Shown here piece after piece: positions 20,417 to 30,764 of a stretch of 64,000 nucleotides of DNA. The DNA lies in the NCBI RefSeq assembly GCF_000026545.1, contig NC_011601.1. One strand, given 5' to 3'. How positions within the stretch are numbered: position 1 is the first letter of the stretch; every line of letters begins with the position of its first letter. The notes beneath the pieces are model-generated. The model saw nothing but the letters and a program-made list of their open reading frames with translations. It was not told the DNA's origin and made no database searches. Both the position numbers and the translations under genes were made by a program. Source of the stretch: Escherichia coli O127:H6 str. E2348/69 (lineage in GTDB: Bacteria; Pseudomonadota; Gammaproteobacteria; Enterobacterales; Enterobacteriaceae).

Positions 20417-20469
20417 GGGCGACACACCTGCATCGCCCTGATTGACATCGTTGATTCTTTAACCTAATT

Positions 20470-20616
20470 TAGTGAGTAAGGGTAAGGGAGGATGACTCCT
20501 CCCCTGAGACTGACTGTTAATAAGCTGGGAAACTTATGAGTAACAGTACAATCAGTATGATGACAAGTCGCATCATAACCCTTCTCCTTCAAGCCCTCGC
20601 TTCGGTGAGGGCTTTA
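20470..20616 (+). ncRNA. sibC: Sib-family antitoxin sRNA (SibC-like), antisense to ibsC
   Basis: Fully overlaps ibsC on the opposite strand; GGGTAAGGGAGG...CCTCCCCTGAGACTGACTG motif; ends in hairpin AGCCCTCGCTTCGGTGAGGGCTTT. Boundaries approximate. Confidence 0.5.
20517..20576 (-). CDS. ibsC: Ibs-family type I toxin, 19-aa hydrophobic peptide
   Basis: Minus-strand ATGATGCGACTTGTCATCATACTGATTGTACTGTTACTCATAAGTTTCCCAGCTTATTAA translates to MMRLVIILIVLLLISFPAY*. Confidence 0.6.
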   Translation of the reverse strand: MMRLVIILIVLLLISFPAY

Positions 20617-22292: not shown

Positions 22293-22952
22293 TCATTTCA
22301 CAATAGTTTTGACACCGTCAGGTGTGCCAATCAGCGCAACGTCCGCGCCACGGTTAGCAAACAAACCAACAGTCACCACGCCAGGAATCGCATTTATGGC
22401 GTTTTCCATCGCTATCGGGTCAAGGATTTCCATGCCGTGGACGTCGAGGATCACGTTGCCGTTATCGGTCACTACGCCCTGACGGTATTCCGGACGACCG
22501 CCCAGTTTCACCAGCTGGCGCGCCACTGCACTACGTGCCATCGGGATAACTTCTACTGGCAGCGGGAATTTGCCCAGAATATCAACCTGCTTGGAAGCGT
22601 CTGCAATACAGATAAATTTTTCCGCAACCGAAGCAATGATTTTTTCACGGGTCAGCGCCGCGCCGCCGCCTTTGATCATTTGCATGTGGCCGTTGATTTC
22701 ATCTGCGCCATCAACGTAGATGCCAAGGCTGTCGACTTCGTTGAGATCAAAAACGTGAATGCCGAGGCTTTTCAGTTTTTCAGTGGAAGCATCTGAACTG
22801 GAAACGGCCCCTTCAATCTGGCCTTTCATTGTACCGAGTGCGTCAATAAAGTGTGCGGCGGTGGAACCTGTACCTACACCAACAATGGTGCCGGGCTGAA
22901 CATACTGAAGTGCCGCCCATCCTACTGCTTTTTTCAATTCATCCTGCGTCAT
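22293..22952 (-). CDS. rpiA: ribose-5-phosphate isomerase A
   Basis: Track ORF extended; Met at 22952 (MTQDELKK) gives 219 aa; RpiA motifs (GVGTGST). Confidence 0.92.
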
Positions 22953-22987
22953 GATCGTTTCGCCTGTGGTATGAAATTTCACACGCA

Positions 22988-23265
22988 TTATACTCTAAAT
23001 AATTCGAGTTGCAGGAAGGCGACAAGAGAGTGACAAATTCGTCAGGAACGAATTTGCCCAGCCGCAGGCTGGCCTTCGGTGAGAGACATGGATGTCTCTC
23101 ATTAATCCCCAGGAGCTTACAGAAGTAAGTGACTGGGGTGAGCGACAAATCCGCATGGAGCGGATTTGAACGCTGCTTGCAGCGGCCCCGTAAGGGGTGA
23201 GGCCCATGGATGGGCCGAATAACCCGCAGACGCAGCACATGCAACTTGAAGTATGACGAGTATAT
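22988..23265. repeat. ERIC (IRU) element, expanded form with two internal hairpin insertions
   Basis: Core matches the inverted copy at 30578-30702 (…AAGTAAGTGACTGGGGTGAGCGA…, terminal TATACTC/GAGTATA); two extra blocks at about 23033-23102 and 23145-23223. Confidence 0.8.
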
Positions 23266-23279
23266 ACAAAAAAAGCGAT

Positions 23280-23558
23280 TCAGACCCCGTTGGCAAGCCG
23301 GGTGGTTAACTCATCCATAAAATATCGCGCAATGGCGGGCATCCCCTTTCGCCCCGCAAATAAAGCATACAACGGTCTGGGGATGCTGCTCCACGGTGCG
23401 AACAGGCGCACCAGTTCCCCGTTAGCAAGCCCCTGTTTACAGGCAAACTGAGGCAATAACGCCACACCATTCAACACAACCAGGGCGCGAACTCGCTGAG
23501 CGAAATGCATTAGCGCAAATCCCTGATCTTTTAAGCTGCGCGTTAACCACTGATACAA
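23280..23558 (-). pseudogene. yqfE: LysR-family regulator fragment (C-terminal effector domain only)
   Basis: 92-aa ORF matching only the C-terminal part of LysR-type regulators; no N-terminal HTH region. Confidence 0.6.
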
Positions 23559-24544: not shown

Positions 24545-24747
24545 TCCATCAAATAATGCCTGATAGCACATATCAGGCATTATCCTCACTTCTTTTTGTA
24601 TTCCTTGAATCACATCACAAAATAGACAAATCTCAGGCGGCAAAAAACGACGTCTGAATGCATTTTTTTTGCTGGCGACAAACCCACGTAAAAAGCTCAC
24701 CGTAAGCGCAAATACCCTCATTTTGATTGCGTTTTACGGAGCAAATA

Positions 24748-25830
24748 ATGTCTAACGTGCAGGAGTGGCAACAGCTTGCCAACAAGGAATTGAGCCGTCG
24801 GGAGAAAACTGTCGACTCGCTGGTTCAGCAAACCGCGGAAGGGATCGCCATCAAGCCGCTGTATACCGAAGCCGATCTCGATAATCTGGAGGTGACAGGT
24901 ACCCTTCCTGGTTTGCCCCCCTACGTTCGTGGCCCGCGTGCTACTATGTATACCGCCCAACCGTGGACCATCCGTCAGTATGCTGGTTTTTCCACAGCAA
25001 ATGAGTCCAACGCTTTTTATCGCCGTAACCTGGCCGCCGGGCAAAAAGGTCTTTCCGTTGCGTTTGGCCTTGCCACCCACCGTGGCTACGACTCCGATAA
25101 CCCACGCGTGGCGGGCGACGTCGGCAAAGCGGGCGTCGCTATCGACACCGTGGAAGATATGAAAGTTCTGTTCGACCAGATCCCGCTGGATAAAATGTCG
25201 GTTTCGATGACCATGAATGGCGCAGTACTACCAGTACTGGCGTTTTATATCGTCGCCGCAGAAGAGCAAGGTGTTACACCCGATAAACTGACCGGCACCA
25301 TTCAAAACGATATCCTCAAAGAGTATCTTTGCCGCAACACCTATATTTACCCGCCAAAACCGTCAATGCGTATTATCGCAGACATCATCGCCTGGTGTTC
25401 CGGCAACATGCCGCGATTTAATACCATCAGTATCAGCGGTTACCATATGGGTGAAGCGGGTGCCAACTGCGTGCAGCAGGTAGCATTTACGCTCGCCGAT
25501 GGGATTGAGTACATCAAAGCAGCAATCTCCGCCGGGCTGAAAATTGATGACTTCGCCCCTCGCCTGTCGTTTTTCTTTGGCATTGGCATGGATCTGTTTA
25601 TGAACGTCGCCATGTTGCGTGCGGCACGTTATTTATGGAGCGAAGCGGTCAGTGGATTGGGCGCACAGGATCCGTATAACAACGTTATCCGCACCACCAT
25701 TGATCATTGTGCACATCCCATGTATCGGGATTATCTGCATCGCTATCTGGAAAATGCGCCTGGCGGACATATTCACCACGATCTTCAGCAATATGCTGAA
25801 GCATCGTGGCGGTATAACGATGATTTCTGA
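24748..25830 (+). pseudogene. scpA: methylmalonyl-CoA mutase (Sbm/ScpA), N-terminal fragment only
   Basis: N-terminal ~325 aa match mutase sequence (…[31 protein letters not shown]); the frame then departs from mutase sequence near 25702 and stops at 25830; the C-terminal B12-binding domain is absent. Confidence 0.75.
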
Positions 25831-30551: not shown

Positions 30552-30577
30552 GTCTCTTGTCCTGTATCGTCGGGCCT

Positions 30578-30702
30578 TATACTCGTCATACTTCAAGTTG
30601 CATGTGCTGCGTCTGCGTTCGCTCACCCCAGTCACTTACTTATGTAAGCTCATGGGATTCACTCTCTTGTCGCCTTCCTGCAACTCGAATTATTTAGAGT
30701 AT
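30578..30702. repeat. ERIC (IRU) element, canonical ~125 bp form
   Basis: Imperfect palindrome with core CCCCAGTCACTTACTTATGTAAGCTCATGGGATTCACTCTCTTGTCGCC; inverted relative to the copy at 22988-23265; lies 27 bp upstream of the fbaA start. Confidence 0.8.
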
Positions 30703-30764
30703 GAAAAAGTGCGTGCTTTAAAAGCGCGCTGCAACAAGGGCAGGTTTCCCTGCCCTGTGATTTT

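Follow-up and report, generated by a model that had tools for sequence, protein, structure and literature searches.

A long-form ERIC element with two hairpin cassettes upstream of rpiA in Escherichia coli O127:H6 E2348/69

Between the genes rpiA and yqfE of Escherichia coli O127:H6 str. E2348/69 lies a long copy of the enterobacterial repetitive intergenic consensus (ERIC), also known as the intergenic repeat unit (IRU), with two folded blocks, here called cassettes, in its interior. The stretch of DNA analysed, 64,000 nt of contig NC_011601.1 (the window), holds a second, short copy, which served as reference. The features are given below by window position and strand, with the basis of their limits in brackets; TIR stands for terminal inverted repeat, and ins1 and ins2 for the two cassettes.

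22989..23264 (+): whole long-form ERIC/IRU, 276 bp including the terminal TATA...TATA (alignment to the short copy, empty-site comparison, inverted repeat)
22989..23033 (+): ERIC left arm, TIR TATACTC...GAGAGTGA (alignments of copies and alleles)
23034..23104 (+): cassette 1 (ins1), 71 nt, with hairpins at 23034-23056, 23058-23072 and 23080-23101 and the tail TTA (presence/absence in strain 06-00048 versus EC42405)
23105..23145 (+): ERIC core hairpin, CCCCAGGAGCTTACAGAAGTAAGTGACTGGGG, loop ACAGAAG, followed by TGAGCGA (alignments and inverted repeat)
23146..23224 (+): cassette 2 (ins2), 79 nt, with hairpins H1 at 23146-23168, H2 at 23171-23184 and H3 at 23186-23197, linker TGAG, H4 at 23202-23215 and tail CGAATAACC (absent at rpiA in 06-00048)
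23225..23264 (+): ERIC right arm, CGCAGACGCAGCACATGCAACTTGAAGTATGACGAGTATA (alignments of copies and alleles)
30578..30702 (-): canonical short ERIC, the reference copy, 125 bp (alignment)
22987..22992 (-): TATAAT hexamer, candidate -10 box in rpiA sense at the insertion junction (read by eye)
22293..22952 (-): coding sequence of rpiA, the neighbour outside the element (gene call)

The ERIC framework and its insertion site

When positions 22980-23275 of the plus strand were aligned with the reverse complement of 30570-30710, the frameworks of the long and the short copy proved to be near-identical, with differences confined to the surroundings of CCCCAGGAG/CCCATGAG and to the core loop (ACAGAAG/ACATAAG), and the two blocks of the long copy were absent from the copy at 30578-30702. 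Indeed, with both blocks removed the sequence equals that of the 125-bp copy save for a few substitutions, and the conserved ERIC framework, an imperfect palindrome of about 127 bp with an inverted repeat at its centre, is present. A first-pass annotation, made from the letters alone, had called the feature an expanded ERIC with extra blocks at 23033-23102 and 23145-23223; the alignment of both copies, which it had proposed, confirms the identity and both blocks, their limits being off by 1-2 nt only. The 71- and 79-nt blocks occur at the same two sites in the ERIC copies at rpiA, gyrA, preT, panC, ybfA and dxs, which marks the rpiA copy as a long-form ERIC.

Pieces of ERIC are found in 5,425 of 5,426 complete E. 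coli genomes, the set used throughout for this species, at a median of 5 places per genome. Every ERIC copy inspected, including the two within the window, is intergenic, and RefSeq has no annotation beneath the one at rpiA. With 7-bp TIRs (TATACTC/GAGTATA), a TA-type target and a presence/absence polymorphism, the element has the properties of a MITE, short for miniature inverted-repeat transposable element. PMC2229807 describes ERIC as a MITE with a 7-bp TIR and TA duplication, and the 272-bp insertion at TA/TATA described below, flanked by 7-bp TIRs, agrees with the published description. The element folds more stably than its dinucleotide shuffles (z = -9.7 for the plus and -10.2 for the minus strand), and in the minimum-free-energy folds of both strands the ERIC termini pair around locally folded cassettes; the arms are still able to pair because the cassettes fold autonomously.

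The insertion site is the 55-bp spacer between rpiA and yqfE, at TA/TATA. Comparison with the K-12 and O157 genomes gives a net insertion of 272 bp (22993-23264) at TATATA. The empty site is GCATTATATACAAAA, K-12 and O157 reading GCATTATATACAAAAAAAG; the filled site is GCATTATA[CTCTAAAT...CGAGTATA]TACAAAA, with TACAAAAAAAG as the right flank in the window. The junction is compatible with a target duplication of TA or TATA, the TATATA target making the length of the duplication ambiguous.

A 701-bp query comprising rpiA, ERIC and yqfE sequence was covered in full by 6 genomes only, nearly all others having a 429-bp version that is 272 bp shorter. The site is empty in ~5,370 genomes (about 99%), and any form of the element is present in only about 1%. 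These comprise 44 genomes with a short ERIC (e.g., EC42405 and CFSAN018748), one with ERIC plus ins1 (strain 06-00048), and six (about 0.1%) with ERIC plus ins1 and ins2, namely three E2348/69-O127:H6 assemblies, VCSW5, VCSW7 and AST215. All filled alleles have a common insertion point, a common framework and a G in the core loop (TTACAGAAGTAA), where the other ERIC copies aligned here have T, and therefore descend from one ERIC insertion. One framework with 0, 1 or 2 blocks at a single site thus shows that the cassettes are gained or lost as discrete units within one resident ERIC. The rpiA copy is probably selfish DNA.

It should be mentioned that the canonical short ERIC overlaps a sub-threshold Rfam match to V_AS5, 'Vibrio RNA AS5' (30586-30704, minus strand; 36 bits, E = 8e-5), which suggests that this Vibrio family may represent the transcript of an ERIC-like repeat.

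The cassettes and their distribution in E. coli

The limits of the cassettes were set from natural alleles of the rpiA locus. The cassettes stand directly after ..GAGTGA (ins1) and ..GAGCGA (ins2). Deletion of ins1 in silico gives back the canonical GAGTGAATCCCC exactly, its end being ambiguous by one A; ins2 stands where the short form has just one A, with a net gain of 78 nt. Each block opens with a perfect hairpin of 9 bp and a 5-nt loop, CAAATTCGT..ACGAATTTG in ins1 and CAAATCCGC..GCGGATTTG in ins2, so that the palindromes at the start of the blocks, to which the first-pass annotation had drawn attention, are real. The two cassettes align as direct, not mirror-image, repeats, and comparison of their sequences shows them to be diverged paralogues of one four-hairpin module in the same orientation, the predicted stems of which differ by compensatory changes.

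The ERIC left arm can hold yet another type of cassette, ins3, which was found there after GCAGGA at the following loci of other E. coli genomes:

L013, 429-500: ins3 at ybhM
L012, 435-506: ins3 at mnmH
L137: ins3 between pepB and iscX
L136: ins3 between waaO and rfaJ
L135: ins3 at uhpA

At ybhM and mnmH, ins3 makes the ERIC a triple-cassette element about 340 bp long. Cassettes of the ins3 kind are present in 1,482 of the 5,426 genomes, pepB-iscX, waaO-rfaJ and uhpA being among the other loci. Some of the copies that bear ins3 consist of left arm, cassette and right arm with the ERIC core missing, apparently lost through recombination between cassettes. All three types have a common architecture: H1 (CAAA..TTTG), AAC, H2, H3 (GCCCC..GGGG), (T)GAG, H4 and CGA(A/G)TA(AC).

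Membership of one family was assessed with a covariance model, R1, built from ten ins3-type cassettes of ten taxa, taken from other species and other ERIC sites. R1 finds ins2 in the window at 23144-23223 with 52.5 bits (E = 9e-15), and over the whole 64 kb no second convincing match was obtained. A weak match at 37134-37187 on the minus strand (12.2 bits, E = 0.04), in which hairpins 1 and 3 are largely missing, is probably due to chance. Cassettes of the ins1 type at other loci match R1 with 16-22 bits, and ins1 is therefore a divergent family member, supported mainly by direct alignment. In 60 distinct sequences aligned to the model, 96.2% of the cells are paired and 15 of the 22 pairs are changed on both sides. 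The covariation score is 0.220, compared with 0.072 for column shuffles (0 of 500 reach the observed value) and at most 0.029 for slid controls, and a separate filtered count agrees. G·U pairs outnumber A·C combinations by 38 to 12, which mildly favours the cassette-sense strand as the one that would be folded. An alignment with MAFFT followed by RNAalifold recovered only hairpins 1 and 3 because the stem lengths vary, and the covariance-model alignment was used instead. That two unrelated palindromes arose here by chance, or that the blocks are an artefact of assembly, is almost certainly wrong: the long form is found at rpiA in six independent complete genomes and the blocks at other loci in hundreds, the R1 match has an E value of 9e-15 and the covariation is far above the controls. 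This explanation was rejected.

The ERIC2 primer (AAGTAAGTGACTGGGGTGAGCG) matches positions 23123-23144 exactly, and this site is intact. Cassette 1 lies between GTGA (23030-23033) and ATCCCCAGGAGCTTACA (23105-23126), the two parts of the ERIC1R site. Since ins1 splits this site, cassette polymorphism may alter the bands obtained in ERIC-PCR between strains.

Copies with both cassettes that are 98.6-98.9% identical to the one at rpiA were met at two other loci: SMS-3-5 and some 30 further genomes have such a copy upstream of gyrA, and strain A25 has one between yeiS and preT. As judged from these copies, the composite of ERIC and cassettes is shown to move to other loci as one unit. The yeiS-preT locus carries either both cassettes or ins2 only. 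When searched for by itself, ins1 was found in 615 genomes and, with 30 nt of ERIC flank required on each side, in 614; for ins2 the counts were 648 without and 688 with 30-nt ERIC flanks. There is about one copy of each cassette type per carrier genome, all 15 of the 15 cassette loci inspected (13 genomic sites) are embedded in ERIC, and each ERIC site bears its own cognate block type. Counts with and without flanks revealed neither free-standing cassettes nor cassettes at non-cognate sites in the 5,426 genomes. The insert sequences, for which the first-pass annotation had suggested a search on their own, thus have no free copies in E. coli, requiring the ERIC flanks leaving the counts essentially unchanged.

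The explanation that we favour as a whole, with a probability of roughly three in four, is that the feature at rpiA is a long-form ERIC/IRU, non-coding and MITE-like, whose framework of ~125 bp was inserted once in the rpiA-yqfE spacer and which carries two cassettes of one four-hairpin module.

The module beyond ERIC and E. coli

The sole Rfam match to the cassettes is RF02902 (Aggregatibacter sRNA 22, AaHKsRNA22). The scores of ins2 (29.1 bits) and ins3 (36.5 bits) are under its gathering threshold of 39.8 bits, and the E. coli cassettes are therefore related to this family but not formal members of it. Both have the same four hairpins and single-stranded linkers (ACAAAACGC..GCGUUUUG AAC .. 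GCCCC..GGGGC GAG .. GAGUA), whereas the Aggregatibacter unit is free-standing and intergenic and the E. coli cassettes lie inside ERIC and score below the threshold. The A. kilianii copy (L019) has 63.2 bits with RF02902, which passes the threshold, and 46 bits with R1.

A scan of 100,044 species genomes for hairpin 1 of the ins3/RF02902 type gave at least 120 loci. Among the matches listed, the ins3 site of ERIC-like elements hosts the module, in many cases with ins1 after it, in Enterobacter, Citrobacter, Salmonella arizonae and diarizonae, Dickeya, Erwinia, Leclercia, Pseudocitrobacter and Intestinirhabdus alba. In I. alba BIT-B35 alone (L036-L119) the cassette hairpin is matched exactly more than 90 times. 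Nearly all of these matches lie in ERIC-like elements, and many belong to chimeric cassettes that join the 5' half of ins3 to the 3' half of ins1 or ins2. Copy number and chimeras together indicate a massive expansion of long-form ERIC and recombination between cassettes. A second MITE of ~230 nt, which is not an ERIC and has the termini TAAGAGCCTGGCC...GGCCAGGCTCTTA (TAAGAGCCTGG termini), carries a shortened cassette in its centre after ..GCTCGCA:

L052 (~540-900), L054, L096, L105, L106 and L112: second MITE hosting a cassette, I. alba
L125: second MITE hosting a cassette, Citrobacter koseri

Also among the matches listed, the module stands alone in Aggregatibacter kilianii, Mannheimia haemolytica and a genome that bears the label P. 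stutzeri NCTC11607. Six further loci listed, two from Gilvimarinus and one each from Kangiella, Zhongshania, Mangrovimicrobium and a gammaproteobacterial metagenome-assembled genome, all have a tRNA gene on the same strand 72-127 nt upstream of the module. The tRNA-linked modules, which come from outside the Enterobacterales and Pasteurellaceae, are:

L027, 10160-10400: tRNA-linked module
L134, 6960-7286 (-): tRNA-linked module
L126, 280-612 (-): tRNA-linked module
L124, 5850-6198 (-): tRNA-linked module
L034, 8934-9290: tRNA-linked module
L035, 1256-1600: tRNA-linked module
L262-L264, L269, L271 and L272: tRNA-linked modules, metagenome

At these loci the module interrupts a duplicated 3' fragment of the adjoining tRNA exactly in the T-loop (TTCGA|AT). 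For example, the Kangiella copy reads GGTGGTTTGA|module|ATCCACTCGCGACTACCA, the tRNA itself having GGTGGTTCGAATCCACTCGCGACTACCA. The same T-loop layout, in some cases in tandem, was found in 6 of 12 matches in marine metagenomes with a search pattern that presupposed TTCGA. Tandem arrays of the module are present in L034, L124 and L262-L269. The marine arrangement resembles the duplications of tRNA 3' ends that are left by integrative elements (attL/attR, crossover in the T-loop) in that the module is likewise found in a duplicated tRNA 3' fragment beside the intact tRNA, at the T-loop. It differs in that the gap between tRNA and module is ~70-130 bp (terminator plus short spacer), which would leave no room for an integrase gene, and in that the module interrupts the repeat and flanks no island; the arrangement was not seen in E. 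coli.

In L126, L027 and L134 the module is closely preceded by a motif, (C)TGATGAG-hairpin-(C/T)GA, that resembles the cassette's own TGAG-H4-CGA tail. A hammerhead ribozyme formed by (C)UGAUGAG-hairpin-CGA before the module was considered but does not hold, since its core would have to be CGA-C-AAAA, the motif is wrongly spaced and no hammerhead was reported by Rfam at E <= 1. As to phage origin, the module hairpin was in none of the at least 120 viral loci listed from a 14-mer scan, and the specific pattern had zero viral matches.

In all hosts the module is preceded by ..GA (or ..CA), begins with CAAA, ends with ..TA and has an A next to it on the 3' side. Two cases are clean, ins1 in ERIC and the tRNA T-loop: there, deletion of the module restores the host sequence, with neither duplication nor footprint. 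We entertain, tentatively and as something more doubtful than probable, that the ERIC insertions belong to a gammaproteobacteria-wide family of four-hairpin cassettes of ~70-85 nt acting as a site- and orientation-specific nested mobile element, with ends CAAA...TA, insertion 3' of ..GA at GA|A and no target duplication, for which ERIC would be one carrier among several. Its hosts may then include three positions in ERIC, the second MITE, the cassette before it where modules stand in tandem, and the T-loop in 3' fragments of tRNAs that are dispensable as such, and the free-standing 'sRNA' RF02902 of the Pasteurellaceae may belong here. The ins1 site of ERIC (GAGTGA|ATCCCC) would be a T-loop mimic.

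Whether such an element is active at present is a different question. It might be mobilised in trans, e.g. by an IS200/IS605-like or RAYT-like single-strand transposase or by a T-loop-targeting recombinase, and insert 3' of ..GA without target duplication. The clean presence or absence of 71 nt between otherwise identical rpiA alleles would be expected of such an element, as would its defined ends, the restoration of the host in ERIC (ins1) and in tRNA T-loops, the constant orientation always after ..GA/..CA, the tandem arrays (L034, L124, L262-L269), the at least four unrelated host contexts and the more than 90 copies in I. alba. The junctions GA|CAAA...TA|A also look like those of IS200/IS605-derived PATEs and of REP/REPIN, which are hairpin-ended, lie in fixed orientation 3' of a short motif without target duplication and form tandem arrays; this is an analogy of junction anatomy only, and hairpin 1 of the cassette starts at the junction itself, whereas the hairpins of IS608 are subterminal. 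It is difficult, however, to reconcile present activity with about one copy per type per carrier and no free or non-cognate copies in the 5,426 E. coli genomes. Moreover, the junctions of ins2 and ins3 are not clean, no associated gene turned up (no enzyme was sought), and the module was absent from the at least 120 viral loci listed, the specific pattern having zero viral matches. A currently active element is thus conceivable, but we would not bet on it. The proposal of the first-pass annotation that a small mobile palindrome had inserted secondarily into ERIC holds in part. Discrete cassettes (rpiA alleles with 0, 1 and 2 blocks), the restoration of ERIC on removal of ins1 and the non-ERIC hosts in other bacteria agree with it; the confinement to ERIC in E. 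coli, the site-cognate types, the movement of the composite as a unit and the unclean ins2 do not.

Origin of the cassettes, rpiA and significance

What we propose is that the cassettes arose by nested insertion at GA|A sites, in a specific orientation and with no duplication of the target, and that in E. coli they would now spread mainly passively, carried along when composite ERICs transpose and passed from one ERIC copy to another through homologous exchange or gene conversion. Passive spread and exchange between ERIC copies would explain both the site-cognate types and the ins2 junction.

It could be argued instead that the long form is the ancestral full-length ERIC and that the short copies, including the 44 at rpiA, arose from it by palindrome-induced deletion, a process named in the title of an earlier paper, 'Palindrome-induced deletion...' (Sharp & Leach 1996). 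Each site does have its cognate block type, long ERICs do stand at the same sites across Escherichia, Salmonella, Dickeya, Erwinia and Intestinirhabdus, there are examples of internal deletion (ybfA_GN25, dxs_JNE and the chimeric cassettes in I. alba), and the soil strains VCSW5 and VCSW7, in which the neighbouring LysR gene is intact, carry the long form. However, random or slippage deletion would not repeatedly excise exactly one cassette and regenerate the canonical junctions, there are no flanking direct repeats of more than 1 nt, and the step from GAGCGA[CAAAT..AATAACC]CGCAG to GAGCGAACGCAG is impossible by a single deletion. Because canonical junctions are not regenerated in this way and the non-ERIC hosts of the module are left unexplained, palindrome-induced deletion is disfavoured, and an ancestral long form appears to us rather improbable. 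The first-pass annotation had allowed for the combination of an ancestral long form with no independent copies of the inserts; the lack of free copies in E. coli fits that combination, but the module in non-ERIC hosts of other bacteria and the failure of deletion to give canonical junctions speak against it.

With respect to rpiA, the element lies 37-40 nt upstream of the ATG, and the TATAAT is present in empty and filled alleles, downstream of the element on the rpiA-sense strand. The main rpiA transcript may therefore start after the element, and if TATAAT is the -10 box, ERIC would replace the -35 and upstream region rather than enter the leader. Any effect on rpiA would, in our proposal, come from displaced sequence upstream of the retained TATAAT and not from a remodelled leader. 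A literature search for a published rpiA transcription start gave nothing usable. The first-pass annotation had considered it possible that the insertions alter the structure or stability of the rpiA leader, that is, that the expanded element acts as a cis-regulatory leader on the mRNA. This would be in line with work on Yersinia, where ERICs that share a transcript with neighbouring genes change the stability of the mRNA, depending on the orientation of the repeat (De Gregorio 2005, as summarised in PMC2229807 and PMC3184786), with the closeness of the element to the ATG (37-40 nt), and with the fold of the rpiA-sense RNA, which is a very stable (-140 kcal/mol, z = -8.3), self-contained ERIC structure. 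On the rpiA-sense strand (23058-23032, minus) a T-rich run comes after hairpin 1 of ins1, and the two together look like a terminator; one such match equals the shuffle expectation and is probably not meaningful. The element is missing in 99% of E. coli and is thus not part of normal rpiA control, the TATAAT lies downstream of it, and the predicted fold has no confident pairing with the ribosome-binding site. Furthermore, the cassette-sense strand is antisense to rpiA, whereas in 7 of 9 other E. coli loci it runs in the sense direction of the flanking genes. On balance, a role as leader is unlikely, its chance being slim.

The favoured explanation of a long-form ERIC with two cassettes of one module has to contend with several points. 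No enzyme was identified for the movement of ERIC or of the cassettes, none having been sought. The ins2 junction is not clean (GAGCGA-A-CGCAG becomes GAGCGA-[79 nt]-CGCAG): an A is swapped for 79 nt, and therefore neither a simple insertion nor a simple deletion relates both states, while gene conversion with an ERIC copy of the other type would do so. Nor is that of ins3, where the cassette replaces the dinucleotide AG, which amounts to a single G/C difference beside it at the junction. For the covariation, the sequences were fitted to the structure of the model, with hairpin 1 fixed by the search pattern. The ERIC-bearing rpiA alleles lie on at least three mosaic flank haplotypes, as judged from flanking single-nucleotide polymorphisms, which do not polarise gain versus loss. 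Finally, strict sigma-70 scans of filled and empty alleles found no promoter, the assignment of TATAAT being by eye only.

In the vicinity, an open reading frame resembling yqfE, a LysR fragment (23280-23558, minus strand), adjoins the element, and argP starts at ~23650 (plus strand). yqfE is variable: it is an intact regulator gene of 897 bp in the soil strains VCSW5 and VCSW7 and a 231-bp fragment in K-12 and E2348/69, and O157-like flanks have an additional 45-bp deletion in it. Downstream of argP, scpA/sbm (methylmalonyl-CoA mutase; window ~24727-25830, plus strand) is annotated in E2348/69 as an incomplete pseudogene, with a longest open reading frame of 367 aa. An Rfam match to SIB_RNA at 20442-20592 (plus strand; 136.5 bits, E = 1e-28) marks a Sib antitoxin RNA locus adjoining serA.

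Wilson and Sharp are said to have reported, in 2006, insertions of ~70 bp at specific internal ERIC sites. The 1997 titles, 'Insertions within ERIC sequences' (Sharp 1997) and that of Cromie et al. 1997, point the same way, and the rpiA long form is therefore a strain-restricted example of an already known kind. Indeed, it has the same framework, TIRs, TA target, intergenic location, multi-copy nature and folded internal blocks of ~70-80 nt as ERIC/IRU/RU-1 including the long forms (Sharples & Lloyd 1990; Hulton et al. 1991; Sharp 1997; Cromie et al. 1997; Wilson & Sharp 2006). Nothing essential is known to differ from these earlier descriptions, save that the rpiA copy is strain-restricted and stands at a normally empty site. 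Correia/NEMIS (155 versus 107 bp) and RUP elements are, like the rpiA ERIC, non-coding, with TIRs, TA duplication, long stem-loop transcripts and length variants through internal blocks; the blocks of ERIC differ in that they belong to a separate, wider module family, with up to three paralogous copies per element. What may be new are the series of four allelic states at a single site, ins3 as a third type of cassette, and the links to RF02902, to a second MITE and to tRNA fragments split in the T-loop.

At the rpiA locus nature provides four alleles that look isogenic (empty, short, plus one and plus two cassettes), in which the effects of ERIC and its cassettes on a housekeeping gene can be measured, as can insertion, excision and conversion. 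Differences between strains in ERIC-PCR may partly reflect cassette polymorphism. How ERIC and its inserts move has never been settled, and the link to a wider family, the ends of which are defined and the target of which is GA|A or a T-loop, makes this question testable.

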